A stretch of 64,000 nt of DNA from Clostridia bacterium (GTDB lineage Bacteria > Bacillota > Clostridia > Oscillospirales > CAG-382): assembly GCA_017561145.1 (NCBI GenBank), contig JAFZDO010000001.1, positions 2,935 to 66,934 on the forward strand, written 5' to 3'. Below are positions 29,353 through 46,053 of the stretch, one piece after another. The position numbers and the translations under genes were made by a program. Position 1 is the stretch's first letter; each line of letters begins with the position of its first letter. The notes below the pieces were generated by a model. That model ran no database searches. It saw only the letters and a program-made list of their open reading frames with translations, and was not told the origin of the DNA.

Positions 29353-29364
29353 AATTTAAAACAA

Positions 29365-29396
29365 AAGCGAGAACTTCGGTTTTCGCTTTTTTGTTT
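29365..29396 (+). terminator. intrinsic terminator after the oxidoreductase operon
   Basis: AAAGCGAGAAC-TTCG-GTTTTCGCTTT followed by a T-run. Confidence 0.55.
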
Positions 29397-29526
29397 TGCA
29401 AAAATTTGTTGATATATGGCGTATTGTGTGATATAATTTACTCTGTATAATAATGTAAGCAATTCAGGAATAATATTTTGTGACAAAATGCGTATTTTTG
29501 CGTCTTTTGTAACGGGGTGTATAGAT

Positions 29527-32886: not shown

Positions 32887-32888
32887 GT

Positions 32889-33557
32889 ATGGCTGAAAGA
32901 AGAGAAGAAAAATATCTTATCAACTACTCGGAATATTCAATCATATCAAGCCGCATAAGAGCACTTATGCAACCCGATAAAAACGGAAAAAACGGCAGAT
33001 ATTCGATATGCTCGATGTATTTCGACGATGCGTTTGACACGGCGCTTGCCGAAAAGGAGGACGGAAACGCGGTGCATATTAAATTCCGCATCCGCACCTA
33101 TGACGGCAACGGAGAATTTATCCGTCTTGAGCGCAAAACCAAGCGCGGAATCGTTACCGAAAAGCATTCGGCAAGAATCACCAAGGAAGAGCTTGACAAG
33201 ATCGTTTCGGGCGAAGCGATCGACGAAGAAAGTGCTTGCTTCGGTCTTGTTTCGGAAATGCGCGCAAAGGGGTTCAAGCCTGCGATTTCGGTTCGATACG
33301 ACCGCGAGGCATATTTAATGCCCTCGCTCGGAGTGCGGGTCACCTTTGACATAAATATCGATTCGCTCCCGCCCGATGCGGATACGCTTTTCGGCAACGT
33401 AAAGCGCGCCCTGCCCGCAATTGACCGCGGACAGATAATTATGGAAATAAAGTATTCCGACCGATGCCCCTCGTTCATCCGCAAGGCGTGCGCAACAAAC
33501 AGCGCACAGCTTTCGGTTTCAAAATACGCACTTTGCAGAAATGCACCGACGATATAA
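32889..33557 (+). CDS. VTC-domain (polyphosphate-polymerase / triphosphate-tunnel-like) protein
   Basis: 222 aa starting MAERREEKYLINY. Charged-alternating beta strands are HIKFRIRTYD, IRLERKTKRG and IMEIKYSD. It starts 2 nt after the cotH-like stop. Confidence 0.65.
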   Translation: MAERREEKYLINYSEYSIISSRIRALMQPDKNGKNGRYSICSMYFDDAFDTALAEKEDGNAVHIKFRIRTYDGNGEFIRLERKTKRGIVTEKHSARITKEELDKIVSGEAIDEESACFGLVSEMRAKGFKPAISVRYDREAYLMPSLGVRVTFDINIDSLPPDADTLFGNVKRALPAIDRGQIIMEIKYSDRCPSFIRKACATNSAQLSVSKYALCRNAPTI

Positions 33558-33575
33558 TTTTAAAGGAGAAACAAA

Positions 33576-34241
33576 ATGAGTATTTTAGACGCAATAAAAA
33601 AGAGTGTTTTAGAGGGCTTTTCCTCTGAAATTACACTTGCAGACATTATTATCTCGCTTATCGTAGCGTTTCTTTCGGGACTTTTCATTCTTCTTATCTA
33701 CCGACTCACGCTGCGCGGCGTTTCGAGAAACAGAACATTTGAGGTCACGTTGCTTCTCGTCACCCCCATTTCGGCAATGATAGTTCTTACCATTACCTCC
33801 AACCTCGCGCTTTCTCTCGGTATGGTCGGTGCTCTTTCGATAATCCGCTTCCGTACCGCAATCAAGGATGCAAGCGACACGGCATTTATGTTCTGGTCGG
33901 TTGCGGCAGGTATCACCGCAGGTGCGCATTTCTATAAGATCACGATAATCGGCTGTCTTTTCATCGGTCTTGCCGCATTTGCGATCATTAAGCTCACCGC
34001 CACAGGCTCACGCCCCTATCTTCTCGTCGTACGTGCAAACAGCGACAAGGCTATCGATTACACTGCGCGTCTTCTTAACGAGAACAACATAAAGAACCGC
34101 CTTTCCTCGCTTGTAGATAACGGCGATTACAGCGAGGTCATTTATGAGATCGCGCTTCGCGGCAACCACCAAAAGCTTGTTGGTGCACTTAAAAACCTCC
34201 CCGACGTTATAAGCGTTTCGCTTGTCGACTGCAGAAACTAA
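33576..34241 (+). CDS. DUF4956-type polytopic membrane protein
   Basis: 221 aa with four hydrophobic helices and the conserved-looking segment ALSIIRFRTAIKDASDTAFMFWSVAAGI. It lies 18 nt after the VTC gene. Confidence 0.6.
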   Translation: MSILDAIKKSVLEGFSSEITLADIIISLIVAFLSGLFILLIYRLTLRGVSRNRTFEVTLLLVTPISAMIVLTITSNLALSLGMVGALSIIRFRTAIKDASDTAFMFWSVAAGITAGAHFYKITIIGCLFIGLAAFAIIKLTATGSRPYLLVVRANSDKAIDYTARLLNENNIKNRLSSLVDNGDYSEVIYEIALRGNHQKLVGALKNLPDVISVSLVDCRN

Positions 34242-34250
34242 ATAAAAAGC

Positions 34251-34275
34251 AAAAGGAGCCGATTGGCTCCTTTTT
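34251..34275. terminator. bidirectional terminator between convergent DUF4956 and ytvI genes
   Basis: AAAAGGAGCC-GATT-GGCTCCTTTTT. Confidence 0.7.
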
Positions 34276-35350
34276 ATTTTTGCTTTGATTCAATGAGCCG
34301 CATTAAAACTATCGCGGATAACGGGAAGAGGAACAGACCCAAAAGTCCCAACAATTCAAGCCCGATATACATCGATGCAAGCGCGGCGATCGGCGGAAGT
34401 CCTATAAATTTGCCGACTATCTTCGGCTCGATTATCTGGCGGATGACGGTTATTAAAACATAAGTTACGAGTATGCCGATGCCGAGCCAATAGTTTCCGA
34501 TAACCAAAAGGACCACGCCCCAAGGGATGAGCACCGTACCCGTGCCGAGCACAGGCAAAAAATCGACAAGCGCAATGACAAGCGCAAGGATAAAGGAATA
34601 ATCGACACCCAAAACGACAAACGCAAGCAAAAGCTCGCCAAAGGTTATGAAAAACAACAAGCCGTAAGCGCGCAGATATTTTCCGACCGTGTTTGCCAAA
34701 ACGTCACGCGCGGCTTTAAGAGTCGGGCGAAGCCGTTCGGGAAAAAGCGAAAGGAAAAAGCTGTTTATCTTTACTCTGTCGATGGCGAAATAATAGGTTG
34801 CGATTATAACGACAACCGTTGAAAAAAGCGCGTTGGGCAAAAAAGAAACCGCCGAGCCCATAAGCGAAACGAGTCCGCCCGTAATACCCTCGCCAAACCC
34901 GACGAGCATCCCCCAAAGCTCCTCGTCGAGGTTGCTTCGCATCGCCCAAAGCTTATCGCGAAGGTCGACGAAGGGTATCATATCGCAAATTTTGTCGATG
35001 GTTTCGTGGGCATAGCCGTCGTCGGTGCGGATGAGAGCAACCGTTTCCTTAATGTTGTCTGCGAGGTCGGATATCTCCAAAACGACCTGACGGCCTATGG
35101 CGTAGATAAGCGCGACCACCGATGCCGTCGCCAAAAACACAACGCAGAGAACGCAGACCTTCTTCGGGAATTTTTTGTGCCTTTCGGAATATTTAACTAT
35201 CGGACGGAAGCACTCGGCGAAGATATAGGCGATAACAAAGGGAAAAACCGCTTCCCAAAGGAAATTGAAGAAAATATAAACAACCGCTATTGCCACCGCG
35301 GCGTACATCGTTATAACGGCAAAGCGCTTGTATGGCTCGTTTGGAAGCAA
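34274..35350 (-). CDS. ytvI: AI-2E/PerM-family permease, sporulation integral membrane protein YtvI-like
   Basis: Polytopic protein with C-terminal DFLPVLGTGTVLIPW and IIEPKIVG motifs. The track ORF (to 35785) reads through tRNA-Ser and the repeat. TTG at 35350, 8 nt after GGAG, is proposed; the ATG at 35308 is the alternative. Confidence 0.75.
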   Translation of the reverse strand: MLPNEPYKRFAVITMYAAVAIAVVYIFFNFLWEAVFPFVIAYIFAECFRPIVKYSERHKKFPKKVCVLCVVFLATASVVALIYAIGRQVVLEISDLADNIKETVALIRTDDGYAHETIDKICDMIPFVDLRDKLWAMRSNLDEELWGMLVGFGEGITGGLVSLMGSAVSFLPNALFSTVVVIIATYYFAIDRVKINSFFLSLFPERLRPTLKAARDVLANTVGKYLRAYGLLFFITFGELLLAFVVLGVDYSFILALVIALVDFLPVLGTGTVLIPWGVVLLVIGNYWLGIGILVTYVLITVIRQIIEPKIVGKFIGLPPIAALASMYIGLELLGLLGLFLFPLSAIVLMRLIESKQK

Positions 35351-35452
35351 ATGCACCACTCCGAAAATACTGTTTTCAATATTATATGGAAAATAATATA
35401 AAATAAATCCCAAAAAAGCGAAACTATTTCGCAAAACAATTAAATTTTTGTG

Positions 35453-35481
35453 TTGACATTGTCGATTTGCTGTGATATAAT
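35453..35481 (+). promoter_or_regulatory. sigma-A promoter of tRNA-Ser
   Basis: TTGACA (35453-35458), a 17-nt spacer, then TATAAT (35476-35481) with an extended TG. Confidence 0.65.
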
Positions 35482-35515
35482 AATCAAGCGCGATTGAGCG
35501 CGAAGTTAATAATAC

Positions 35516-35606
35516 GGAGAAGTCGCTTAGCTGGTCGAGGGCGCACGACTGGAAATCGTGTAACGGATAAAACCGTTCGAGAGTTCGAATCTCTCCTTCT
35601 CCGCCA
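35516..35606 (+). tRNA. tRNA-Ser (anticodon GGA), CCA encoded
   Basis: Manual fold. Acceptor GGAGAAG/CTTCTCC, anticodon stem CACGA/TCGTG with loop CTGGAAA, long variable arm AACGG-ATAAAA-CCGTT, T-arm GAGAG-TTCGAAT-CTCTC, then GCCA. Confidence 0.92.
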
Positions 35607-35610
35607 AACA

Positions 35611-35636
35611 AAAACCACCCAATCGGGTGGTTTTTT
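35611..35636 (+). terminator. terminator hairpin after tRNA-Ser
   Basis: AAAACCACCC-AATC-GGGTGGTTTTTT. Confidence 0.7.
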
Positions 35637-35647
35637 GTTTGGCTTTT

Positions 35648-35784
35648 GAAGAGATTCGAAGGGCGTAAGCCAAACAGTCCGGGGGACTGTTTGGGTAGCC
35701 CCGCGGAGCAGACCGCAACGGAAGAGGCGCGGAGCGCCGCTTGGAGTTGCATTGGGCTGCGGAGGAATCTCTCCTTCTCCGCCA
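35648..35784 (+). repeat. tRNA-3'-end-terminated structured element, Ser-type copy 1 (candidate ncRNA or att-like site)
   Basis: 137 nt and GC-rich. The last 20 nt (35765-35784, GAATCTCTCCTTCTCCGCCA) are identical to tRNA-Ser 35587-35606. The 5' AGAGATTC (35650-57) pairs with GAATCTCT (35765-72). There is an 11-bp hairpin with a GGG loop at 35670-35694, plus further helices GCAAC/GTTGC and GGCGC-GGA-GCGCC. Confidence 0.8.
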
Positions 35785-35788
35785 AAAC

Positions 35789-35820
35789 AAAAGGACAGGC
35801 AATGCCTGTCTTTTTGTTTT
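35789..35820 (+). terminator. second terminator hairpin after the duplicated tRNA 3' end
   Basis: AAAAG-GACAGGC-AAT-GCCTGTC-TTTTT. The flanks are the same as in the first terminator, but the stem sequence differs. Confidence 0.65.
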
Positions 35821-35826
35821 GGCGGA

Positions 35827-35974
35827 ATGAAGCGCACCTGACGGTGCATGAAGCATGAAGTCGCCTACGGCTATGAAGCGTGCCTTCGGCACATTAGGAA
35901 CGAAAAATGCGCTTCGCTTCATGCAAGCGTTAGCGAGTGCTTCATATTGGCGAAGCCAATGCTTCATTTTTCAT
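35827..35974. repeat. array of the heptamer ATGAAGC (x4, forward) and its complement GCTTCAT (x3-4), interleaved with short hairpins
   Basis: ATGAAGC occurs at 35827, 35848, 35855 (ATGAAGT) and 35873. GCTTCAT occurs at 35916, 35939 and 35961, with TTTTCAT at 35968. Local hairpins are GCACC-TGAC-GGTGC, GTGCC-TTC-GGCAC and ATTGGC-GAA-GCCAAT. Confidence 0.8.
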
Positions 35975-36002
35975 TGAAAATACAAAAAACTTATGATATA
36001 CT
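35974..36002 (+). promoter_or_regulatory. sigma-A promoter for the four-helix-bundle operon
   Basis: TTGAAA (35974-79), a 17-nt spacer, then TATACT (35997-36002) with an extended TG. Confidence 0.5.
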
Positions 36003-36024
36003 TCACTTGAAGGAAGGTGTTTAT

Positions 36025-36378
36025 ATGCGCAATGACAAATTATCCACGCAATCGATGGACTTCGCCGTTTCAATTATAAAACTTGTGAAATACTTAAAAG
36101 AAAGCAAAGAGCATATCATTTCCAATCAAATCGGAAGAAGCGGAACAAGCATAGGCGCGAATATCCGCGAGGCACAGTATGCGCATGGGAAAGCGGACTT
36201 TATTGCAAAATTGCAAATAGCCCTAAAAGAAGCCAATGAAACGGGATATTGGTTAGAATTGCTATACAAAACGAATTATATTACAGAAGATCAATATAAA
36301 GATTTAGATGCAGTTTGTACGGGTCTTCGTGCTATGTTAATTGCATCTATTAACACCGCTAAGGAGAATATGAAATGA
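36025..36378 (+). CDS. four-helix-bundle protein of the 23S rRNA intervening-sequence protein family (Avd-like fold)
   Basis: The ATG at 36025 follows GAAGGAAGG. The sequence FAVSIIKLVKYLKESKEHIISNQIGRSGTSIGANIREAQYAHGKADFIAKLQIALKEANETGYWLELL is typical of this family. The upstream part of the track ORF lies in the heptamer array. Confidence 0.75.
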   Translation: MRNDKLSTQSMDFAVSIIKLVKYLKESKEHIISNQIGRSGTSIGANIREAQYAHGKADFIAKLQIALKEANETGYWLELLYKTNYITEDQYKDLDAVCTGLRAMLIASINTAKENMK

Positions 36379-36953
36379 GGTTATACCACGGTTCTATATT
36401 TGCTAATATAACTGAACTGTTGGCGAATTCAACTTTACACGAAAACGCGAATCAAAAGGTTGTCTATCTTACTGACAATATTCCATATGCTCTGTTATAT
36501 ATTTGGGATTCAAACCGTAATTTTAAACAAGGCAAGCACGTTACCGCGTGGATTAAAGAAAACCAAGTATTCTATGAGGAACAATTCCAAAATCAATTGA
36601 GAACTTTCTATGACGGTGTCAGCGGATATTTATATGCGGTAAACAATACTACATCTTTTTCCCCCGTTAACAACCGAGAAGCCATGTGGTTTTCTCCTAA
36701 TAACACAAAAATCGATATAGTTAAATATATCCCGAACGTATACGATGAACTTTGTAAATATATAAATTCAGGCGAATTGAAAGTTATTCATTTCGAGGAT
36801 GTCGATAGCGAAAGAGTTAACGATTTGTATAATTGTATCGTAGATCGAATAATATCCAAGCACTTACTTGAGAACCCCGATGATTCGGACGCGGTTTTTT
36901 ATCAAAAATTTTTTCTTGAGGCATGGGAATTAGCTAAAAGCAAAAACGTATAA
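36375..36953 (+). CDS. hypothetical protein (N-terminal LYHGS motif)
   Basis: 192 aa with AT-rich codon usage and a start overlapping the upstream stop (ATGA). RLYHGS...VVYLT is only faintly reminiscent of H-Y-E ADP-ribosyltransferase-like folds, so no assignment is made. Confidence 0.4.
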   Translation: MRLYHGSIFANITELLANSTLHENANQKVVYLTDNIPYALLYIWDSNRNFKQGKHVTAWIKENQVFYEEQFQNQLRTFYDGVSGYLYAVNNTTSFSPVNNREAMWFSPNNTKIDIVKYIPNVYDELCKYINSGELKVIHFEDVDSERVNDLYNCIVDRIISKHLLENPDDSDAVFYQKFFLEAWELAKSKNV

Positions 36954-37011
36954 TCTTTCGATTGTTCAATTCTATACCTTCTATCATCTGTTTTATTCTA
37001 CCTTTACAAAC

Positions 37012-37057
37012 AAAAACCGCAATTCTGATACAAAAGAGTTGCGGTTTTTGTTTTTTT
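37012..37057 (+). terminator. intrinsic terminator
   Basis: AACCGCAA-N17-TTGCGGTT followed by a T-run. Confidence 0.6.
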
Positions 37058-37099
37058 ATGGTATAATAGAATTACAAAAAACTAAAGGAGGCATTTTCT

Positions 37100-37528
37100 A
37101 TGAAAATATTTAATCCCGCAGATTGTAAGGAACCACCTCGAGCCGATATGTTTTTACCTGATTTTTTAAAATATTTTGGTTTTTTTCTGGATGCTGTAGC
37201 AATAGTATTCTTAGTTGCAACATTTATTACACAAATTTGGGGATTAATTATAGGAGCGCTTATTTGTGGAGGACTTGGTGTCGCAGCATGGCTTTGTTGG
37301 AAAAATCAGACAGTTCGTATCATTGATGAGGATCGCTTTGAATACACTACTTTTTTAGGAAAAACGACCGTATATAATTTCTCAGATATAAAGGCTTTGC
37401 GTGTCAATCAAGATTCCATGACATTGATTTTAACAAATGGAAAAATACATATAGAATCTATGGTACGTATGTCACAAGCTCTTGTCGACAAAATAGATCA
37501 ATCAATCGAAAAAACAAGTAGTAATTAA
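37100..37528 (+). CDS. hypothetical two-TM membrane protein
   Basis: 142 aa with AGGAGG upstream. It has two adjacent hydrophobic helices, then a small soluble domain. Confidence 0.5.
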   Translation: MKIFNPADCKEPPRADMFLPDFLKYFGFFLDAVAIVFLVATFITQIWGLIIGALICGGLGVAAWLCWKNQTVRIIDEDRFEYTTFLGKTTVYNFSDIKALRVNQDSMTLILTNGKIHIESMVRMSQALVDKIDQSIEKTSSN

Positions 37529-37561
37529 AAAGTTTTGTATCAAAATTATGGTTATTAGCCA

Positions 37562-37596
37562 AAAAGAACAACCACCAAACGGTGGTTGTTTCTTTT
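37562..37596 (+). terminator. terminator-like hairpin preceding Ser-type copy 2
   Basis: AACAACCACC-AAAC-GGTGGTTGTT plus a T-run. It is preceded by GCCA, as at the true tRNA end. Confidence 0.6.
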
Positions 37597-37601
37597 TGTT
37601 C

Positions 37602-37731
37602 TGAAGAGATTCGAAGGGCGTAAGCCAAACAGTCCGGGGGACTGTTTGGTTAGCCCCGCGGAGCAGACCGCAACGGAAGAGGCGCGGAGCGCCGCTTGGA
37701 GTTGCATTGGGCTGCGAAGGAATCTCTCCTT
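37602..37731 (+). repeat. tRNA-3'-end-terminated structured element, Ser-type copy 2
   Basis: There are 2 substitutions relative to copy 1 over the shared 126 nt. The match to the tRNA-Ser 3' end is truncated to 13 nt (GAATCTCTCCTTC). Confidence 0.8.
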
Positions 37732-37749
37732 CGACATTTTTTGCGTTAC

Positions 37750-37778
37750 CTTGACAAAATAGCTAAACTGCTATAAAA
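37750..37778 (+). promoter_or_regulatory. probable sigma-A promoter for the 37810 gene
   Basis: TTGACA (37750-55), a 17-nt spacer, then TAAAAT (37773-78). Confidence 0.45.
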
Positions 37779-37809
37779 TAATATCATCAATCCCAAAGGA
37801 GGCAGAAAA

Positions 37810-38292
37810 ATGACGATTGAACAGGCGATATATTTTAAAGTTCTGATTTGCAACGGATACCCCGAAGAGTTGTTGAAATACATTGACACCGCTTTGGAAA
37901 CGCAGGATCCGCTAAGCGACATTGTTTTGGAGATGTCTTTTGCCGCAAATGACGAAGAAAAGCTGATTTCTCTATTAAACGAGCGCATCAACAGTGTAAA
38001 GCCCGAGGAAATCGACTTCGACGGCACTTTGTTCGATATGCTTCTGGCATTCTTCAAAAGAAAATACAGAGAAGAAAATATGCCAATTGATGAGCTTGTA
38101 TATCTTATGTATAGATTCTCGCTCGTTTATGAACCATGGGACAAATGGTGGAATGCTGCAACAAGTCGCCTTTGGCACGTAATGTATTATATGCAGGATT
38201 ACTATGAATTTGGCGACAGGAATGAATTTTTGAAGATGTTGGACGACTTTTTGGATAATAAGATACCTCCCGAATCTCCGTTTTTACGATAA
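37810..38292 (+). CDS. hypothetical small helical protein
   Basis: 160 aa with AAAGGAGG upstream and AT-rich codons. No family recognised. Its size and composition resemble orphan immunity-type cassette proteins (speculative). Confidence 0.45.
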   Translation: MTIEQAIYFKVLICNGYPEELLKYIDTALETQDPLSDIVLEMSFAANDEEKLISLLNERINSVKPEEIDFDGTLFDMLLAFFKRKYREENMPIDELVYLMYRFSLVYEPWDKWWNAATSRLWHVMYYMQDYYEFGDRNEFLKMLDDFLDNKIPPESPFLR

Positions 38293-38350
38293 GAGCAATC
38301 GCATTTTACAATTGAACAGTTTTTGCGAGAAAATTCATCATTGAAAATTC

Positions 38351-38383
38351 AAAACAACCACCCAATCAGGTGGTTGTTTTTTT
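38351..38383 (+). terminator. terminator-like hairpin preceding Ser-type copy 3
   Basis: AACAACCACCC-AATC-AGGTGGTTGTT plus a T-run. Confidence 0.6.
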
Positions 38384-38388
38384 GTTTT

Positions 38389-38514
38389 GAAGAGATTCGA
38401 AGGGCGTAAGCCAAACAGTCCGGGGGACTGTTTGGTTAGCCCCGCGGAGCAGACCGCAACGGAAGAGGTGCGGAGCACCGTTTGGAGTTGCATTGGGCTG
38501 CGGAGGAATCTCTC
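38389..38514 (+). repeat. tRNA-3'-end-terminated structured element, Ser-type copy 3
   Basis: There are 4 substitutions relative to copy 1 over 126 nt. Two of them are compensatory in the GGYGC-GGA-GCRCC hairpin. The tRNA-end match is truncated to 9 nt (GAATCTCTC). Confidence 0.8.
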
Positions 38515-38578
38515 GAAAAATTTTCCAGAATGTATTTCGAGGATATTTTTCTCTTCGCTTTTCATTTTCCGTTTTAAG

Positions 38579-38607
38579 TTGAAAAGCAATTGGCATTGTG
38601 CTATAAT
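38579..38607 (+). promoter_or_regulatory. sigma-A promoter for the serine hydrolase-namZ operon
   Basis: TTGAAA (38579-84), a 17-nt spacer, then TATAAT (38602-07) with an extended TG (TGCTATAAT). Confidence 0.6.
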
Positions 38608-38628
38608 ACCAATAAAGAGGTGAAACGT

Positions 38629-39621
38629 ATGGATATAAACCGACTCCAAGCGCTTTTACAAAGAGGGCTTGACGAGGGCGCATATACCTGCTATGCGGCG
38701 GCGGTCGGATGCAAGGACGAAATATTTTTGCGCTCGTTCGGCGGTAAGAGGGCGATTTTGCCCCAAGAAGCCGAAATGACCGAGGACGTGCTTTTTGATA
38801 TGGCTTCGCTTTCGAAGCTTATCGGCACTACAATGGCGGCATTGAAGCTTATTGAATGCGGCAAGCTTCGGCTCGACAACAAAATGAGCGACTTTTTTAG
38901 AGGTTGCCACGGTAAGGAAAACACAACTGTTTTTCAGTTGATGACGCACACCTCGGGCATAAAGGCGCACTTCCCTCTTTGGCTTCGCGGAATCGATCCG
39001 AGCGATGCCGAAAAGGAAATTCTGCGCGAGCCGTTTGGATATACTCCCGAAAGCAACGCCGTTTATACCTGTATGGGCTATATTTTGCTTGGTCGGATTC
39101 TTGAAAGGATAGAAGGTCAACCGCTTGACAAGATAGTACAAAAATACGTTTTCGACCCGTTGTCGATGAAAAACAGCTTTTATAATCCGCCGAGCAACAA
39201 AGCTTGCGCCGCTACCGAAAAAAGCGCGGCTACGGGCGAGATAATTTGCGGAAGCGTACACGACGAAAACGCCGATTTTTTAAACGGAATTTCGGGCAAC
39301 GCGGGCGTTTTTTGCAGTCTTGACGATTGCATTACCTTTGCGAAAATGATTTCAAACGGGGCAAAGGACTATCTTCCCGAGGAGCTTTTCAGTGCGGCTA
39401 TACACGGCTACACCCCTCAGTTTGAAGAAAACCGCGGGCTCGGCTTTAATATCGTCGGCAACCGTATCGGACACACGGGATTTACGGGTACCGCGATATA
39501 CGTTGGAAAGGAAAGCGGTGTTTTTGCAATTTTGCTTACAAACCGCGTTCACCCGACGAGAAACAATGGCAAGCTTTTCCCGATAAGAAACGAATGGCAC
39601 AGACAGATTTTCGGTGAATGA
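38629..39621 (+). CDS. beta-lactamase-family serine hydrolase (AmiE/YbbE-like candidate)
   Basis: The ATG at 38629 follows AAAGAGG. It has the SxxK motif MASLSKLIG, plus HTSG and HTGFTGT motifs typical of class-C-like serine hydrolases. Confidence 0.7.
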   Translation: MDINRLQALLQRGLDEGAYTCYAAAVGCKDEIFLRSFGGKRAILPQEAEMTEDVLFDMASLSKLIGTTMAALKLIECGKLRLDNKMSDFFRGCHGKENTTVFQLMTHTSGIKAHFPLWLRGIDPSDAEKEILREPFGYTPESNAVYTCMGYILLGRILERIEGQPLDKIVQKYVFDPLSMKNSFYNPPSNKACAATEKSAATGEIICGSVHDENADFLNGISGNAGVFCSLDDCITFAKMISNGAKDYLPEELFSAAIHGYTPQFEENRGLGFNIVGNRIGHTGFTGTAIYVGKESGVFAILLTNRVHPTRNNGKLFPIRNEWHRQIFGE

Positions 39622-40771
39622 TATGAAAAAAGTCAGCGTTTTAAACGGCATCGACCGTATCGACGAATATTTTTATCTGCTCGACGGACTTAAAATCGGT
39701 CTTATTACCAACCCGACGGGCAGAAACAAGGATTTTAAGGAAACTGCGGATATTCTTGCCGAGAAGGGGCTTCTTAAATGTCTTTTCTCGCCCGAGCACG
39801 GAGTGCGCGGCGGTGCGACCGCAGGCGCGCATATTTCCGATTGCATCGACGAAAAGACGGGTGTGCCGAGCTATAGCCTTTACGGAGCCTCGCTTCATAT
39901 ACGCGACGAGGTTTTAAAGGAGCTCGATGCGGTTGCTTTTGATATTCAGGACGTCGGCGCAAGGTTTTACACCTATATCTATACCCTCTCGTACGCGATG
40001 GAGGATTGCGTCAAGGCGGGAAAGAGATTTATCGTTTTCGACAGAATTAACCCCGTTGGCGGCGCTTGCGCGCAGGGCAGTGTGCTTGACCGAAAATTCT
40101 CCTCGTTCGTGGGCAGATATCCGATCGCAACGCGCCACGGATTTACCGTCGGCGAATTTGCACGCTTTATCAACGAAGTCGAGGGCATTGGCTGTGACCT
40201 TACCGTGATACCCGTAAAGGGCTGGACACGCGAAATATATTTTGACGATACCGACCTTATCTTCATTCCGCCCTCGCCGAATATACCAACTGTTGAAAGC
40301 TGCTTTGCATATCTTGCGACCTGCCTTTTCGAGGGCACTAACGTTTCGGAGGGGCGCGGCACGGCAAAGCCGTTTGAGTTTATCGGCGCGCCTTGGTTAG
40401 ATCACGAGCGTATTTGCGAAGAAATGAACGCATTAAAGCTTTCGGGCGTTAAATTCCGTCCCTGCTTTTTCACTCCGACCGCGTCGAAGCACGCAAATAC
40501 CGAATGCAAGGGCATTCAGCTTCATATAACCGACCGCAGAAGCTTTAACCCCTTTGAATCGGGCTTGCATTTGCTTGATTTGATACGCAAAACACACGTT
40601 GAGTTTGAATTTATTGCGCCCTATTCGCAAAACGCAAATTATTTTATCGATCTGCTCTTGGGCAGCGACGAATTGCGGCGTGACGGCTTTGACGTTGATG
40701 AATTTTTAAAGAAGCAAAACGAAAAGCTGAAAGAATATACGGCTAAAATCGAAAAATTTTACTTATATTAA
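39614..40771 (+). CDS. namZ: DUF1343 / exo-beta-N-acetylmuramidase NamZ-like protein
   Basis: Contains IGLITNPTGRN and LFSPEHGVRG. The start overlaps the upstream gene by 8 nt. Confidence 0.7.
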   Translation: MNDMKKVSVLNGIDRIDEYFYLLDGLKIGLITNPTGRNKDFKETADILAEKGLLKCLFSPEHGVRGGATAGAHISDCIDEKTGVPSYSLYGASLHIRDEVLKELDAVAFDIQDVGARFYTYIYTLSYAMEDCVKAGKRFIVFDRINPVGGACAQGSVLDRKFSSFVGRYPIATRHGFTVGEFARFINEVEGIGCDLTVIPVKGWTREIYFDDTDLIFIPPSPNIPTVESCFAYLATCLFEGTNVSEGRGTAKPFEFIGAPWLDHERICEEMNALKLSGVKFRPCFFTPTASKHANTECKGIQLHITDRRSFNPFESGLHLLDLIRKTHVEFEFIAPYSQNANYFIDLLLGSDELRRDGFDVDEFLKKQNEKLKEYTAKIEKFYLY

Positions 40772-40803
40772 AGAAAAATACGGGAGAAATTCTCCCGTAT
40801 TTT

Positions 40804-42609
40804 TTAGTTAAATTGTGAATTATAAAGCGTGCTGTAGAAGCCGCCCTTTTTGAGCAATTCGTCGTGATTGCCGATCTCGGTGATTCTGCCGTTCTGAAGA
40901 ACGATTATCTTGTCGGCATTTTGAATTGTCGAAAGTCGGTGCGCGATGATAAAGCAGGTTCTGCCCTTCATCAGCTCGGTCATTGCCTCTTGTATCTTTA
41001 TCTCGGTGCGAGAGTCGACGTTCGATGTCGCTTCGTCGAGAATAAGCATTTGCGAATCGGCTATCATCGCACGTGCGATGGTGATAAGCTGGCGCTGACC
41101 CTTTGAAATGTTAACGCCGTCGTCGGTAAGCACGGTGTTATATCCGTCGGGCAGGCTTTCGATAAAGCTATCTATCCTTGCGGCGCGCGCGGCTGCCTTA
41201 ACCTCTTCAAGCGTTGCGCCCTCGCGGCCGTACGCGATATTTTCATAGATCGTACCGCAAAACAGCCAGGTGTCCTGAAGCACCATCGTGTAGGCTTTTC
41301 TTAACGATTCGCGCGTGATATCCCTCTCGTCGATGCCGTCGACGGTTATTTTGCCGCCGTTTACGTCGTAAAAGCGCATAAGAAGCGAGATGATCGTCGT
41401 TTTACCTGCGCCCGTCGGGCCTACTATTGCGATGGTTTTGCCTTGAAGCGCATCAAACGTTATGCCGTGGAGTATCTCCTTTTCGGGGGTATAGCCGAAG
41501 GTAACGTCTTGAAATTCAACGTCGCCCTTTGCTTTGTGAAGCGTGATAGCGTCGTCCGAATCGGTTTTCTCGGGTTGCTCGTCGAGGATCGCAAAAACGC
41601 GGTCGGCGGCGGAAAATGCCGATTGGAATTCCGAAATGATGTTTGCAAATTCGTTTATCGGGCCTGCAAACTTGCGCGAATACTGAACGAACTGCGCAAC
41701 ACCGCCGAGCGAAATGAAGAACAGCGAGCCGACAGCCGCTTCGCCGCTTTGCGAATAGAGATAAAGAATTCCGCCGAACATCGTGACGAGCGAGATCGAA
41801 ATGTTGTTGATAAAGTTGACCGAGGGGCCCATTGCCGCACCGTAATAATCGGCTTCGTAATAGGCGTCCATCGAATCGGTATTGCGCTTATTGAAGCGCG
41901 AGCCTATTTCGTTTTCTCGGTTATATGCGCGTATAGAGCCGCAACCGGAAAGCATTTCCTCGGCATATCCGTTCAATTCGCCGAGCTTTTTCGAGCGTTT
42001 TCTGAAAAGCGGACGCACACGCTTTGCGCGGTAGCGCGTAAAGAGTATCGACGCAGGCACAGTTACAAGGAACACCGCGATAAGCGGCTTTGAGATGTTC
42101 CACATAAACACAAGCGAGCCGATAACGGTATACAAGCTCGTCATTACCTGCACAAGATCGTGCGAGAGCGTCGAATTGATAGTGTCGATATCATAGGAAA
42201 TATGGCTTATGATGTCGCCTGTCGGGTGAGTATCAAAATATCCGACGGGCAAGGAGGTAAGCTTTTCAAAAAGCTGTTTTCTCATCGTATATACTATTTT
42301 TTGGCTGAGCTTTATCATAATGACCGCCAAAAGATAGGATATCACGGCGGATGCGATATAGCACAAAAGCATATAGACGAGATTTTCGGCGACGACCGCC
42401 GTATCAACTCCGCTCTCCGATGCTATCGCATCGATAGCAAGACCCGAATATTTGGGGCCCATAAGCGAAAGCTGGTTTGCAAAAAGAGTCATGATCACAG
42501 CAGGTATAAAGATATACCAATATTTCAAAACGTATCCGCAGAGCCTTAAAAGGATGCCTTTGGTTTTTCTTTCCTGCTTGCCTGCTTCGGGCTTATTCAA
42601 CGAAAGCAC
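40804..42609 (-). CDS. ABC exporter, fused permease/ATPase subunit
   Basis: 601 aa with six N-terminal TM helices. Walker A is GPTGAGKTT, the signature is ISKGQRQ, and Walker B is LILDEATS. Confidence 0.85.
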   Translation of the reverse strand: MLSLNKPEAGKQERKTKGILLRLCGYVLKYWYIFIPAVIMTLFANQLSLMGPKYSGLAIDAIASESGVDTAVVAENLVYMLLCYIASAVISYLLAVIMIKLSQKIVYTMRKQLFEKLTSLPVGYFDTHPTGDIISHISYDIDTINSTLSHDLVQVMTSLYTVIGSLVFMWNISKPLIAVFLVTVPASILFTRYRAKRVRPLFRKRSKKLGELNGYAEEMLSGCGSIRAYNRENEIGSRFNKRNTDSMDAYYEADYYGAAMGPSVNFINNISISLVTMFGGILYLYSQSGEAAVGSLFFISLGGVAQFVQYSRKFAGPINEFANIISEFQSAFSAADRVFAILDEQPEKTDSDDAITLHKAKGDVEFQDVTFGYTPEKEILHGITFDALQGKTIAIVGPTGAGKTTIISLLMRFYDVNGGKITVDGIDERDITRESLRKAYTMVLQDTWLFCGTIYENIAYGREGATLEEVKAAARAARIDSFIESLPDGYNTVLTDDGVNISKGQRQLITIARAMIADSQMLILDEATSNVDSRTEIKIQEAMTELMKGRTCFIIAHRLSTIQNADKIIVLQNGRITEIGNHDELLKKGGFYSTLYNSQFN

Positions 42610-44314
42610 CTCCCATCTGGGATTCGCTTATTTCACGGTATTCCTCACAGCTGTCGAGCAGATCGTTATGATTGCCCATACCGATAATTTCGCCCTCGTC
42701 GAGCACGATGATCATATCGCAATCCTTTACCGAGCTTACGCGCTGAGCAACCGTAATAACCGTCGTTTCGCCGAGCGATTCCGAAAGCGCGCTTCTTAAA
42801 GCGGCGTCGGTTTTATAGTCGAGCGCCGACGAGGAATCGTCGAGTATCAGTATCTCGGGCTTGGAGGCAAGCGCACGCGAAATAAGTATCCTTTGCTTCT
42901 GTCCGCCCGAAATATTGCTTCCGTGCGGTGTGAGAAGGTGGTCGTATCCTTCGGCAAAATCGGTGATAAAGCCGTCTGCCTGTGCGATCCTTGCGGCGGC
43001 TATAACCGACTCGTCATCGATCTCCCTGCCGAAGCGGATGTTTTCCGCGATAGTATCGGCATAAAGGAAGTCCTGCTGCATCGCAGAGCCGAACATCGCG
43101 TAAAACCGTGATTTTTCAATCGTTTTTATGTTTTCGCCGTTGATAAATATCGAGCCGTTGCTCACGTCGTAAAAGCGAAGCAAAAGCTTAATAAGCGTCG
43201 TCTTGCCCGAGCCTGTCGCGCCGATTATTCCCAACCGACCGCCCTTGGGGAGCGAAAACGAAATGCTTTTAAGGTTATCCTTTACACCCTTGTAGGAAAA
43301 GGAAACGTTATCGAATACGATATGGTCACCGTCAGCCTTATCGGGGAATTCGCTCTTGTCGTAAACCTTAATGTCCTCGTCGGCATCGAACACCTCGCTT
43401 ATACGTCTTGCCGATGCGGCACACTTCGTGTACATAACGAACATTCGCGTTACCGACATCATCGCCATCGAAATGAGCGTGAAATACTGCATAAAAGCAA
43501 CGACTGTTTCGGGGTTGGAAAGCCCCGACTCGACTCTGCCGCTTGCCAATGCGATAACGGCGACCGAGCCGACGTTCATCAAAACCGTCATTATCGGGTT
43601 GACGCTGCCCATTACGACGCCTGCGCGCGTTTCGTCCTTGATAAGCGCGGAATTTACCGCATCGTAACGGCGATGCTCGTAATCGGTCTTTGAAAGCGCC
43701 TTGATAACGCGTATTCCCTGCGCATCCTCACGCACTACACGTATCATCCCGTCGACAGATTTCTGAACCCTTGTATAAAGAGGCACGCCCTTTTTCGAAA
43801 TGAAATAAACCGTTATGAAAATAAAAGGAAGAACGGCTATCATCGCAAGCGCAAGATATGCATCCATAAACAGAGTGATGCCGATGCCGCCGATAAGCAT
43901 TATCGGAGCACGCACGCCGAGGCGTTGCATCATATTTACAAAGTGGTGGACGTTGTACGTATCGGTCGTGATACGCGATTCGAGCGAGGGGATCGTGAAT
44001 TTATCGGTCTGGGACGCAGAAAGCCGAAGGGTCTTTATAAACAGATCCTTTCGCATGCTTTCGGCAAAATTCCGCGAAACACGCGCCGCCATTCGGTTTG
44101 CGACGATATTGCAAACGCAGGCGATAACCGCGCAGACGAGCATTGCACCACCCCAAAAAAGAATGTCTTTTACCGATTTTGTAATGACGTTTTTAAGTAT
44201 ATGGGTGAGTATGTACGGAATCAAAAGCTCGACGACCGTGCCTGCGGTTTTTATTAAAAACCCAACGGTCATCCGTCGGTAGAATCCGCGAAGATATTTA
44301 AAGAGTATTTTCAT
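42593..44314 (-). CDS. ABC exporter, fused permease/ATPase subunit (heterodimer partner)
   Basis: 573 aa. Walker A is GATGSGKTT, the signature is ISGGQKQR, and Walker B is LILDDSSS. It overlaps its partner by 17 nt. Confidence 0.85.
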   Translation of the reverse strand: MKILFKYLRGFYRRMTVGFLIKTAGTVVELLIPYILTHILKNVITKSVKDILFWGGAMLVCAVIACVCNIVANRMAARVSRNFAESMRKDLFIKTLRLSASQTDKFTIPSLESRITTDTYNVHHFVNMMQRLGVRAPIMLIGGIGITLFMDAYLALAMIAVLPFIFITVYFISKKGVPLYTRVQKSVDGMIRVVREDAQGIRVIKALSKTDYEHRRYDAVNSALIKDETRAGVVMGSVNPIMTVLMNVGSVAVIALASGRVESGLSNPETVVAFMQYFTLISMAMMSVTRMFVMYTKCAASARRISEVFDADEDIKVYDKSEFPDKADGDHIVFDNVSFSYKGVKDNLKSISFSLPKGGRLGIIGATGSGKTTLIKLLLRFYDVSNGSIFINGENIKTIEKSRFYAMFGSAMQQDFLYADTIAENIRFGREIDDESVIAAARIAQADGFITDFAEGYDHLLTPHGSNISGGQKQRILISRALASKPEILILDDSSSALDYKTDAALRSALSESLGETTVITVAQRVSSVKDCDMIIVLDEGEIIGMGNHNDLLDSCEEYREISESQMGGAFVE

Positions 44315-44736
44315 TTTACTTCCTCGATCTCGATCGCCTTGTTAAGCATTTTGTCAAGTATTTCGTGGAAGCGCTTCAATTCCTCCGCGTCGATGCCCTC
44401 GGCGAGTCTTGAATTCCAGTCAACGGTGATATTCTTGACCTCGGGCAGGATATCAAACATCTTTTGCGTCGGGAAAACCAAGGTTTCGCGCTTGTCCGAA
44501 TCGCTCGTGCGGCGTTCTACGTAGCCTTCAAGCTCTAAATGCGCAAGATGTCGCGTGACGTTGGATTTGTTGATACAAAGGTATTGCACAAGCTTTTCCT
44601 GCGGAAGTCCGGGGTTCTTGCATATCGCAAGAACGTAGCTGTGGTAAATTCCCGCAAGGCCGACGGTTGACTTTTCGGTGCGGTAATTCGCCTCGCATCG
44701 GCTGATAATGTTCATTTTTCGCATTATTGTTGCCAT
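44311..44736 (-). CDS. MarR-family transcriptional regulator
   Basis: 141 aa with the winged HTH LPQEKLVQYLCINKSNVTRHLAHLELEGYVERR. The stop overlaps the ABC gene start. Confidence 0.8.
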   Translation of the reverse strand: MATIMRKMNIISRCEANYRTEKSTVGLAGIYHSYVLAICKNPGLPQEKLVQYLCINKSNVTRHLAHLELEGYVERRTSDSDKRETLVFPTQKMFDILPEVKNITVDWNSRLAEGIDAEELKRFHEILDKMLNKAIEIEEVK

Positions 44737-44754
44737 TTTTTACCTCTACAAAAT

Positions 44755-44787
44755 TAGTTGCATTTAAAACCGTTTCATTTGCAACTA
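44755..44787. promoter_or_regulatory. inverted repeat, candidate MarR operator
   Basis: TAGTTGCA (44755-62) and TGCAACTA (44780-87), about 20 nt upstream of the marR start. Confidence 0.45.
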
Positions 44788-44837
44788 TCTTAGCATAATT
44801 TTTTTCGTCTGTCAACAAAGTACTGACCCAAAAAATG

Positions 44838-44866
44838 TTGACAAACAAAAAAAGATGTGATATATT
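44838..44866 (+). promoter_or_regulatory. sigma-A promoter of tRNA-Glu
   Basis: TTGACA (44838-43), a 17-nt spacer, then TATATT (44861-66) with an extended TG. Confidence 0.6.
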
Positions 44867-44886
44867 ATTGTAGCAATAAGAAATAC

Positions 44887-44961
44887 GGCCTGTTAGTCAA
44901 GTGGTCAAGACGTCGCCCTCTCACGGCGAAGGCAGGGGTTCGACTCCCCTACGGGTCACCA
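44887..44961 (+). tRNA. tRNA-Glu (anticodon CTC), CCA encoded
   Basis: Manual fold. Acceptor GGCCTGT/ACGGGTC (two G-T pairs), anticodon stem TCGCC/GGCGA with loop CTCTCAC, T-arm GGGG-TTCGACT-CCCC, then ACCA. It closely resembles Bacillus-type tRNA-Glu. Confidence 0.88.
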
Positions 44962-44964
44962 CGA

Positions 44965-44999
44965 AAAACAAACCTCACTTTATGTGGGGTTTGTTTTTT
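44965..44999 (+). terminator. terminator hairpin after tRNA-Glu
   Basis: AAACAAACCTCAC-TTTAT-GTGGGGTTTGTTT plus a T-run. Confidence 0.7.
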
Positions 45000-45011
45000 G
45001 TCTTGCAAATT

Positions 45012-45149
45012 GGGAGTCGAAGGGCGCGTGTTGAATGACAGTCCGGGGGACTGTCAGACCGCGCCACCGCTCCGCCCCGGGGTCCCCGAAAATGAACGAA
45101 GTGAGTTTTTGGGGTGGACGTAGGCGGGCGACTCCCCTACGGGTCACCA
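45012..45149 (+). repeat. tRNA-3'-end-terminated structured element, Glu-type
   Basis: 138 nt. The last 21 nt (45129-45149, CGACTCCCCTACGGGTCACCA) are identical to tRNA-Glu 44941-44961. The 5' GGGAGTCG (45012-19) pairs with CGACTCCC (45129-36). It shares the core TCGAAGGGCG and the hairpin ACAGTCC-GGG-GGACTGT with the Ser-type element. Confidence 0.8.
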
Positions 45150-45150
45150 G

Positions 45151-45187
45151 AAAACAAACCTCACTTTATGTGGGGTTTGTTTTTTGT
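45151..45187 (+). terminator. second copy of the tRNA-Glu terminator hairpin
   Basis: Nearly identical to 44962-44999. Confidence 0.65.
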
Positions 45188-45192
45188 ATAAC

Positions 45193-45227
45193 AAAAAAAC
45201 AGACGGTTTCCCGTCTGTTTTGTTTTT
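45193..45227 (-). terminator. terminator for the convergent membrane-protein gene
   Basis: CAGACGG-TTTC-CCGTCTG flanked by A- and T-runs. Confidence 0.6.
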
Positions 45228-45231
45228 AATA

Positions 45232-45963
45232 TTAAAGACCTTTTGCTCTGAGCTTTCTGTCCTTGTTGTCCTGAATCTTGCCGTATACAGCGTAGCCGAT
45301 ATACATACCGAGAATGCAAAGAGGACCAACGGTGGTATAGAAGTTGAGAGTAAGCATGGTGGAAAGGTAGTCAAGGAGAACGATAACACAATTTACGATC
45401 ACTGCAAAGATAACGCCGGACAAGATCTTGAAGATCTTGGAAGAAACGTTTTCGTGGTTTTCCCAAGTGAGGATCATAAGGTTGCCTGCGAATGCAAGGA
45501 TGATGAAGAACAGGATGTACGAGAAGTAGCCGAAGAGCATTTCAGCAGGCTTTTCGCTGAACGCCTGAGGAAGTGTCATCTTATATTCAACAGAGTTGAT
45601 CGAAGGATATTCAGCGGTTTTGGAATCGGGCGATGCATTGAGGTTGGGGATCATATCGAGAACGAGGTAGGAGCCGACAACCAAAACGATGAAAAGCAAC
45701 ACGAGAAGAGTACGTACAAAGCCTTGGATCTTAACTGCTTTTCTCTTGACCGCCTTGTAGATGATAGAAGGAATAGCAAGGACCAACGCCAAGCCGAAAG
45801 CGATTCCAACGTATTTTGCAGCAACACCGAAGAGGTAGCCGATTTCAATAGCGGATTCGGTATTCAAAACAACGAATATAGCAATCAAAGCAATTACTGC
45901 TGCTAAAATCAATATAAGTTTTATATGCTTGCGCAAACTCGATATTACATTAGACATGATCAA
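45232..45963 (-). CDS. hypothetical polytopic membrane protein
   Basis: 243 aa with about 6 hydrophobic helices. No family recognised. Confidence 0.5.
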   Translation of the reverse strand: MIMSNVISSLRKHIKLILILAAVIALIAIFVVLNTESAIEIGYLFGVAAKYVGIAFGLALVLAIPSIIYKAVKRKAVKIQGFVRTLLVLLFIVLVVGSYLVLDMIPNLNASPDSKTAEYPSINSVEYKMTLPQAFSEKPAEMLFGYFSYILFFIILAFAGNLMILTWENHENVSSKIFKILSGVIFAVIVNCVIVLLDYLSTMLTLNFYTTVGPLCILGMYIGYAVYGKIQDNKDRKLRAKGL

Positions 45964-46053
45964 AAAACACTCCTTGCACGATTATGGAATTAGTTAATAT
46001 TAATATACCACAGTATTTTCTCAATGTCAAGTTTTTTGTTGAACAATAAGAAC

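Follow-up and report, generated by a model that had tools for sequence, protein, structure and literature searches.

A Conserved Folded Element behind tRNA Genes of Gut Clostridia, Possibly a Single-Stranded Attachment Site

Introduction

A 64,000-nucleotide (nt) stretch of the genome of a Clostridia bacterium (GenBank assembly GCA_017561145.1, contig JAFZDO010000001.1, positions 2,935 to 66,934 of the forward strand; hereafter, the window) raises the question of why a non-coding element found behind two different tRNA genes should suit its closing helix to the neighbouring tRNA while keeping an internal core constant. The element was described in an earlier note, made from the sequence alone, which compared a Ser-type and a Glu-type version and considered that either a functional RNA fold or a folded-strand recombination substrate similar to an integron attC site would account for it. 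Below, the conserved folded module is referred to as S and the copied tRNA 3' end as O; L-numbers designate the homologous loci that were compared. The reading that we favour, with a confidence that stops somewhat short of even, is that the element is the conserved folded module of a miniature, non-autonomous integrative unit, and that the fold is a single-stranded recognition site, similar to those of integron attC and of phage CTX-phi, for a recombinase acting in trans.

Results

The Element Is a Predicted Three-Way Junction Whose Helices Covary

The window contains four copies of the element, three Ser-type and one Glu-type, all on the + strand and located downstream of two tRNA genes, tRNA-Ser(GGA) (35516..35606, + strand; Rfam tRNA score 53.3 bits) and tRNA-Glu(CTC) (44887..44961, + strand; 65.5 bits), both identified with ARAGORN. 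The Glu element (45012..45149, + strand) was recognized by a covariance model, R1, with a score of 96.9 bits (E 1.7e-21). Its closing helix, P1, is formed by GGGAGTCG (45012-45019) paired with CGACTCCC (45129-45136). The core TCGAAGGGCG (45017-45026) leads into the enclosing helix P2 (GGCGCG, 45023-45028, paired with CGCGCC, 45060-45065), which encloses a hairpin (45036-45056) with the 17-mer ACAGTCC-GGG-GGACTGT at 45038-45054. P3 occupies positions 45069-45129 and carries a 45-nt mini-hairpin insert (45078-45122), and the element ends with the tail CTACGGGTCACCA (45137-45149). In the Ser-type copies, the closing helix is AGAGATTC/GAATCTCT and the enclosing helix is GGGC/GCCC, while TCGAAGGGCG and the hairpin are common to all four copies. 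The exact TCGAAGGGCG occurs nowhere else in the window, and the four occurrences of the 17-mer compare with 0.04 expected by chance. Closing helix, core, hairpin, and enclosing helices as described in the earlier note could thus all be located in the window.

A pattern scan of 185,579 species genomes yielded 57 loci, about 47 of them true, and a scan of metagenomes added about 12 more. About 65 relatives were collected in all. The true genome matches were all from metagenome-assembled genomes (MAGs) of Eubacteriales, Oscillospiraceae, or Clostridia, and came mostly from the guts of ruminants or other animals. The minimal element is an 83-nt three-way junction with a 13-nt tail. P1 (8-10 bp) is followed by the junction J1/2, GAA; by P2, GGCGCG/CGCGCC, which bears the conserved hairpin; by the junction J2/3, AC(C/A); and by P3, a hairpin of 7 bp in which a bulged T is conserved and the loop is CGNR; in some copies P3 has an insert of 40-60 nt. 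In the tail, which is followed by a terminator, the 3' strand of the acceptor is continued by N73 and CCA. Junction and loop nucleotides are invariant.

RNAalifold analysis of 29 sequences predicted 30 base pairs, 14 with compensatory changes. The R1 model was then built and 50 matches were aligned to it. In this alignment, pairing was observed in 97.4% of cells, compared to 85.6% in column shuffles, and both sides were changed in 20 of the 30 pairs; none of 500 shuffles reached any of the observed measures. When the partners were slid by 1-3 columns, pairing dropped to 38-47%. Covariation was detected in all four helices, the near-invariant hairpin included (ACAGTCC/GGACTGT is replaced by ACGTGCC/GGCACGT in L031). 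The claims that the internal core is conserved and that the inner helices covary are therefore borne out on 50 homologues, by the covariance model as well as by the pair-by-pair count. G.T cells outnumbered A.C cells in paired columns (22 versus 8), which points to the tRNA-sense (+) strand as the folded one. RNA folds of the elements had z-scores of -3.5 to -3.6. The single-sequence minimum-energy fold of Ser copies 1 and 2 favours a local hairpin over the closing helix, so in these copies the closing helix rests on comparative evidence.

Cores that were 100% identical over 63 nt were found on different tRNAs: the Arg element of L051 matches the Glu element of the window, the Ala element of L064 matches the Ser element of L059, and the Leu element of L023 matches the Glu element of L033. 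Behind the same tRNA in different genomes, cores were 93-97% identical, compared to 43-71% for the flanking terminators, a contrast that is subject to the pattern-based sampling of homologues considered in the Discussion. Judged from these alignments, S is most simply described as a three-way junction formed by the tRNA-sense strand.

A mini-hairpin of approximately 42-45 nt (GGGGTCCCCGAAAATGA...TTTTTGGGG) was present at varying positions in otherwise homologous S elements: at 45078-45122 in the window, in the P3 loop in L014, L054, and L070, in P2 in L035, and inside the tail in L028. It looks like an independent tiny insertion element.

The Closing Helix Follows the Identity of the Upstream tRNA

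The 3' strand of P1 is the start of a direct repeat of the last 20-21 nt of the upstream tRNA, from the T-loop to CCA, and in nearly all copies the sequence shared with the tRNA starts at C56 or G57. The 5' strand of P1 consists of the T-stem 5' strand and the complement of T-loop nucleotides 56-60, and is thus the exact reverse complement of tRNA nucleotides 56-65 (56/57-64 in the window copies). It is complementary to the tRNA because the P1 3' strand duplicates the tRNA 3' end.

Forty-one elements were located 41-60 nt downstream of a tRNA gene on the same strand, and the element always had the orientation of the tRNA. Sixteen anticodon types were represented (Ser GGA, GCT, and TGA; Glu CTC; Trp; Leu CAG, CAA, TAG, and GAG; Arg CCT and ACG; Ala CGC; Pro CGG; Gln CTG; Met; and Tyr). 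In an additional example, Gly CCC, the tRNA is separated from the element by cargo. In L021 and L027, P1 matches the T-arm of tmRNA, the gene of which (Rfam RF00023, 152 bits) lies upstream of the element. The two tmRNA genes (L021 973-1320, L027 3228-3575 (- strand)) were missed by ARAGORN and found by Rfam, and the unit lies about 60 nt downstream of them.

When the P1 5' strand was compared with its cognate tRNA, 8-10 of 10 positions could pair in 38 of the 41 cases. The mean cognate pairing was 8.78 of 10, versus 7.53 +/- 0.13 with tRNAs permuted, and none of 10,000 permutations reached the observed value. The proposal that the closing helix is adapted anew to each neighbouring tRNA, beyond what drift would produce, is upheld by this tabulation. 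The complementarity itself, on which the earlier note had laid stress, is real but partly built in, because the P1 3' strand is itself part of the duplicated tRNA 3' end, a direct repeat of the att type; only the P1 5' strand is tailored. As deduced from its two strands, P1 repeats, within a hairpin, the double-stranded sequence that the target has across the T-loop and the 3' half of the T-stem.

The Unit Is Inserted Precisely between Two Copies of the tRNA End

The unit in which S is found consists of a terminator, a spacer, S, and O (from T-loop nucleotide 56/57 to CCA); it is about 140-190 bp long and non-coding. In the window, the last 20 nt of Ser element 1 (35765-35784) repeat positions 35587-35606 of tRNA-Ser, and the last 21 nt of the Glu element (45129-45149) repeat positions 44941-44961 of tRNA-Glu. 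On the Glu side the whole terminator is duplicated as well: a terminator and spacer lie between tRNA-Glu and the Glu element (44962..45011, + strand; 45-nt repeat, 93% identity), and a second copy of the tRNA-Glu terminator follows the duplicated tRNA end (45150..45187, + strand).

Filled and empty sites could be compared at the MarR|tRNA-Glu locus, for which genomes were sampled through MarR homologues, irrespective of the presence of S. In L090, the tRNA gene is directly followed by a terminator, T_x, and cargo, and there is no S. In L055, the same T_x and cargo come after a [terminator-S-O] unit of roughly 150 nt that adjoins the tRNA, and in L090 the flanks of this unit overlap by exactly the 21-nt repeat. 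Likewise, a 178-nt unit separates tRNA-Ser from the following cassette in the window, while in L006 the cassette adjoins the tRNA directly. A direct repeat of the tRNA 3' end (20-21 nt) thus bounds the insert, as at the att sites of islands and prophages integrated at tRNA genes, and the unit accounts exactly for the difference between filled and empty sites. We conclude that the unit was inserted as a discrete piece, with the 20-21 nt repeat on either side, and that it supplies its own terminator for the tRNA.

Tandem units were found in L024, L064, L078, L059, and L031, where three of them recur every 141 nt; shortened copies were found in L006, L047, L064, and L045. In distal copies the tails carry point mutations or are cut short and the core is intact. 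Inserted units start directly after ...CCA and often end in ...CCA (GCCA in cassette A of the window, TGCCA in L057, 13 nt in L053, 20 nt in S-O units). Arrays of cassettes with copies of the element are present in the window, L014, and L050; most copies are units without a cassette. The units therefore occur singly, in tandem, in truncated form, or as the boundaries of small cargo cassettes.

The Ser array of the window illustrates several of these states. The intrinsic terminator T1 (35607..35649, + strand; hairpin 35610-35635 and a 7-nt spacer, terminator scan) is the opening part of the 178-bp inserted unit and falls within a 175-nt repeat of the window. It is followed by Ser element 1 (35650..35784, + strand; R1 score 39.7 bits), with the P1 5' strand at 35650-35657, the core TCGAAGGGCG at 35656-35665, the hairpin at 35674-35690, a long P3 arm, the P1 3' strand at 35765-35772, and the tail CCTTCTCCGCCA at 35773-35784. 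Two more units were delineated from repeats, the R1 model, and the terminator scan. One (37558..37732, + strand) comprises terminator T2 (37566-37591) and Ser element 2 (37605-37732), whose tRNA-derived tail is shortened to 13 nt (GAATCTCTCCTTC); the other (38344..38514, + strand) comprises terminator T3 (38351-38380) and Ser element 3 (38391-38514), whose tRNA-derived part is shortened to 9 nt, that is, to the P1 3' strand only. Over 32-40 kb, the region of the Ser array, G+C content falls from about 0.50 to 0.445, a weak signal that fits acquired DNA. Cumulative GC skew, calculated for positions 28000-44000, has a shallow minimum near 28-36 kb, and this signal is also weak.

Copies of the Element Lie between a Terminator and the Next Promoter

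A strong intrinsic terminator is located upstream of every copy, at a distance of 7-12 nt in the window and 7-20 nt across the family. The promoter and terminator scan revealed no sigma-70-like promoter before any copy; the good promoters of the region are ahead of tRNA-Ser and downstream of the elements. The terminator hairpin behind the tRNA end (35785-35822 in the window, 3317-3355 in L006) runs into the last 6 nt of the tRNA (CCGCCAAAAC...GTTTTGGCGG), so that the CCA end falls within a 22-bp palindrome. The first 28 nt of this hairpin (35785-35812) directly precede, and partly overlap, the GCGG that opens a hairpin-repeat module at 35822 (see below). Most terminators at these loci pair at least with CCA.

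No Recombinase Gene Accompanies the Element

No tyrosine or serine recombinase, DDE transposase, HUH enzyme, relaxase, or reverse transcriptase was recurrent in about 480 kb of flanking DNA. All-versus-all clustering of 717 open reading frames (ORFs) from the flanks returned only syntenic host genes, HTH-XRE proteins, and PF05635 proteins. Pfam analysis of the window cassettes, the ORF clustering, and regex and phmmer scans, which covered rve as well, identified no integrase carried by the insert; there was no tyrosine recombinase and no ORF with an HUH motif, the IS200-type Y1 included, in any flank, and no TnpB, IscB, or IS110 gene nearby. The only recombinase gene adjoining S, coding for a large serine recombinase in L041, was rejected as a candidate, being a 3'-truncated fragment whose close homologues in six other loci have neither S nor a tRNA gene nearby. 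This gene (L041 2449-3918) lacks approximately the last 26 codons and is joined to a terminator and S; about 1.9 kb of its parent element is present. The junction suggests that S-bounded units can trap pieces of other mobile elements.

Searches for S in reference collections were likewise negative. Rfam 15 contains no family that matched S at the gathering score or at E<=5 in positions 35000-46000, the tRNA/tmRNA clan, HEARO, and IS605-orfB included, and ARAGORN and the Rfam tRNA and tmRNA models matched genuine genes only. Blastn searches with the core gave no match in 50,697 phage or 72,556 plasmid records, and the pattern scan gave 0 matches in viral contigs. No description of the element was found in the literature searched. 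S is not tRNA-like, as it has no acceptor stem and the S core takes the place of the T-loop. Inspection revealed no covarying partner with which the tail could form a minihelix or pseudoknot; the 7 nt before P1 are not complementary to the tail or the acceptor strand.

Cargo and Neighbouring Modules

Cargo, where present, consists of small genes with their own promoters; a PF05635 gene is usually first and is followed by variable genes (GNAT and unknowns). Cassette A of the window (35785..37557, + strand; Pfam, promoter and terminator scan, fold) has GCCAAAA at both ends, and the segment 35788-37557 is absent from L014, at the GCCAAAA junction. The cassette contains a terminator, a Gut-1-like hairpin-repeat module (35822-35985), a promoter (35974-36002), a PF05635 four-helix-bundle gene (36025-36378), and two ORFs (36375-36953 and 37100-37528). 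PF05635 (23S-rRNA-IVS/Avd-like) genes are also the first genes in L006 (3558-3911), L057 (1676-2008), L055 (248-679), L044 (2541-2897), and L090 (1662-2009), and the second gene, which is variable, often overlaps the PF05635 stop codon. Elsewhere, members of this family are known to occur within insertions of rRNA genes and in diversity-generating retroelements.

The hairpin-repeat module comes directly after a tRNA or S-O unit and its terminator. Besides the window, it was seen in L036 (5935-6135), L050 (1313-1429), L055 (100-300), L057 (1360-1560), L090 (2060-2230, - strand), L001, L017, L044, and L059. It opens with a 7-9-mer (in the window, ATGAAGC) that is repeated directly three to four times, with a short GC hairpin after each copy, and continues with equally many inverted copies; its fold is comb-like and branched (z -4.7 and -5.6). 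The modules of L036 and L050 match Rfam Gut-1 (RF01706; 90 and 55 bits), and the window version is below the Rfam thresholds. The module is usually ahead of the PF05635 gene; in L036 it is alone.

An ORF of 160 amino acids (37810-38292) and a beta-lactamase-like gene (38590-39621) are about 300 bp apart in the window, and this interval holds T3, Ser element 3, and a new promoter. In L014 and L055 the same two genes are contiguous, with overlapping stop and start codons, and the C-terminus of the ORF is different. The ORF has a sub-threshold match to Replitron_C (16.9 bits versus a 27-bit cutoff), which is probably noise.

Discussion

The nested covariation of S and its wobble bias imply that a single-stranded fold is required. 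The position of the element between terminator and promoter, its presence/absence polymorphism, the tandem and truncated copies, the decay of the tails, and the lack of a partner for the acceptor strand favour a role at the DNA level. On the reading that we prefer, S would be recognized by a recombinase supplied in trans and would most likely work as folded single-stranded DNA, either in the lagging-strand template or in a single-stranded circle. The P1 stem would offer the enzyme a double-stranded core with the same sequence as the part of the target that begins in the T-loop and reaches into the T-stem; strand exchange would take place within or beside the conserved TTCGA of the T-loop; and binding of the enzyme would fall to P2 and P3, whose loops and junctions are invariant. 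The closing helix would then track the tRNA because O must match the target, as otherwise the rebuilt tRNA would be defective, and because the P1 5' strand must match O, as otherwise there would be no fold.

Several observations weigh against this reading. The recombinase it calls for was not identified among the recurrent genes of the flanks, phages, plasmids, and viral contigs yielded no autonomous parent with S beside an integrase, and no circular or excised form of the unit was seen. The tails of internal copies end variably (9, 12, 13, 14, or 20 nt) and do not point to a single fixed crossover site. L090 has cargo at the same tRNA without any S, which is therefore not needed for every insertion there. 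The single-stranded state of the DNA is inferred. Apparent conservation is inflated both by the way homologues were gathered, through exact matches to a 20-base pattern, and by the fitting of the alignment to R1. Finally, G.T wobbles and covariation fit an RNA equally well, and since tRNA promoters are strong, read-through of the terminator could yield one.

The last point leads to the alternative that the S-O unit specifies a folded, non-coding RNA, which read-through from the strong tRNA or tmRNA promoter would produce and which, as a partial tRNA mimic, would act on the tRNA end or on a factor that binds tRNA; we regard it as a serious rival, though a doubtful one. The T-stem-like P1, a junction resembling the UCGAA of a T-loop, the GGG loop as an imitation of the D-loop, and the free acceptor 3' strand ending in CCA would be the parts of the mimic, and the direct repeat would merely record the arrival of the gene. 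Strong covariation in all helices, the excess of G.U over A.C on the tRNA-sense strand, invariant junction and loop nucleotides, low fold z-scores, and an orientation that is always that of the tRNA, with a terminator at the end, are all expected of such a gene, and the hairpin-repeat module next to the element matches Gut-1, a motif considered a likely RNA by those who discovered it (PMC2864571). Yet every copy has a canonical intrinsic terminator 7-20 nt upstream with no promoter in between; the tail has no pairing partner, which would leave the CCA end unprotected; no Rfam family matches; and tails are decayed or truncated in many copies whose core is intact. Tandem, truncated, and presence/absence copies suit a mobile element better than a housekeeping RNA gene. 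Of the two explanations offered by the earlier note, the context, from terminator and missing promoter to presence/absence, tandems, and cassettes, thus favours the recombination substrate, and the RNA keeps the lesser share. A different kind of RNA, a guide similar to the TnpB omega-RNA or the IS110 bridge RNA, would have S as its scaffold and the 3' tail leading a nuclease or recombinase to tRNA gene ends. A constant scaffold followed by a variable segment of roughly 13-21 nt identical to the target is what such a guide would look like. But no TnpB, IscB, or IS110 gene lies nearby, the element has no promoter ahead of it, the Rfam HEARO and IS605-orfB models have no match, half of the putative guide would be locked in P1, and, as the occupied site keeps an intact target, a nuclease would attack its own locus. 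We give this version hardly any credence.

Readings that place the function in DNA need not involve a folded attachment site of the kind proposed here. S might be the end of a peel-and-paste or rolling-circle element (IS200/IS605 PATE-like or IS91-like) mobilized by an HUH enzyme encoded elsewhere, with the cut made beside a hairpin, insertion occurring 3' of CCA or of the T-loop TTC, and sequence 5' of or within the hairpin pairing with the cleavage or target site. The guide sequences of IS608 are known to work by base pairing matched to the target. The units do begin after ...CCA and often end in ...CCA, at 141-190 nt they are too small to circularize easily as duplexes, and the folded strand would be the lagging-strand template if the tRNA genes are co-oriented with replication, an assumption for which there is only a weak positive GC skew. 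We nevertheless consider such an origin unlikely: no flank contains an IS200-type Y1 or other HUH gene, the pairing involves 8-10 bp with the flank of the 3' end rather than 4 nt with the cleavage site, inspection revealed no conserved CCA complement 5' of P1, and a 20-21 nt flanking direct repeat is foreign to IS200/IS605 insertion. Such a repeat, starting in the T-loop of a tRNA 3' end, is the classical signature of tyrosine-integrase islands, and S could accordingly be an ordinary double-stranded attP arm with palindromic sites for an integrase or excisionase, the covariation coming from symmetric half-sites that co-evolve with the proteins. The nearly invariant central 17-bp palindrome would suit this explanation. 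It does not, however, account for three nested helices, including arms 70-110 nt apart, that covary with many sequences, for the bias to G.T over A.C, or for a single conserved core that serves more than 16 target sequences, and P1 would be meaningless in duplex DNA. We therefore hold a duplex arm to be very unlikely.

Integron attC and CTX-phi attP(+) are precedents for folded single-strand attachment sites. Like attC, including the attC sites of CALIN elements, S appears to conserve the structure of one folded strand, DNA or RNA, with a conserved bulged base; at some loci its copies stand between small cassettes in arrays, and a recombinase would not need to adjoin. Unlike attC, S also has a highly conserved core sequence and forms a three-way junction rather than a simple imperfect hairpin; its stem copies the tRNA T-arm, the site is tied to tRNA or tmRNA 3' ends, and the cassettes bear their own promoters. 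There is no IntI or attI, and the R''/R' boxes (RYYYAAC/GTTRRRY) are absent: the P1 sequence differs with each tRNA (AGAGATTC, GGGAGTCG, GGGAATCG, and others), and a lone GTTGAAT in an internal loop lacks an RYYYAAC partner. Attachment-site candidates similar to attC but with complex folds, for example the DUF1874 motif, have already been noted by the Weinberg group (PMC5737381). Complete integrons were not found in Firmicutes, the host phylum of the element (PMC4889954). With CTX-phi attP(+), the site used by XerCD, S would share a single-stranded DNA hairpin that forms a target-like double-stranded core and an enzyme provided by the host or in trans; the CTX target, though, is dif, and its forked hairpin is made of two inverted sites, whereas S stands at tRNA genes, forms a three-way junction, and has an inferred single-stranded state.

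Tyrosine-integrase islands and prophages at tRNA and tmRNA genes likewise have a tRNA 3'-end repeat starting in the T-loop, a tRNA rebuilt from the element, tmRNA targets, and tandem accretion; the S unit differs in having no integrase, in being as small as about 140 bp, and in its covarying folded arm common to more than 16 targets. IS200/IS605 ends and PATEs are also non-autonomous, hairpin-bearing, and strand-specific, with a target that can be re-set by base pairing within DNA, but S pairs over 8-10 bp rather than 4 nt, has a 20-nt flanking repeat, and has no TnpA or TnpB associated with it. Gut-1 (RF01706), a structure of unassigned function from gut Clostridia, is found at the same loci, right after the terminator of the element (L036, L050); it consists of 7-mer repeats with short hairpins between them, while S matches no Rfam family. 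From these comparisons, S appears to resemble most an attC/CTX-type folded site grafted onto the classical logic of integration at tRNA ends.

If S is such a folded site, one may speculate further, and with considerable reservation, that the units are the att sites of an undescribed cassette-capture platform of Firmicutes, analogous to integrons, in which one trans-acting recombinase and one folded core are used throughout and the target is set by the P1 5' strand and the carried tRNA end. It is a similarly tentative suggestion that such a platform would amount to naturally re-programmable integration, guided by structure plus homology, with any tRNA or tmRNA 3' end as a target.

The element gives the orphan Gut-1 motif a genomic context, and S merits a curated family model whether it is a DNA site or an RNA; in the latter case, it would be a new, abundant mimic of the tRNA end. 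Should S be a folded recombination site, then changes confined to a short stem strand and the carried tRNA end can direct one core to no fewer than 16 tRNA species and to tmRNA, which would be an economical natural solution for retargetable integration at sites that are both safe and conserved. Gut Clostridia, in which no integrons were found, would then have their own way to stack promoter-bearing cassettes behind tRNA genes, and part of the hypervariable DNA found behind tRNA genes in rumen and gut MAGs would be explained.

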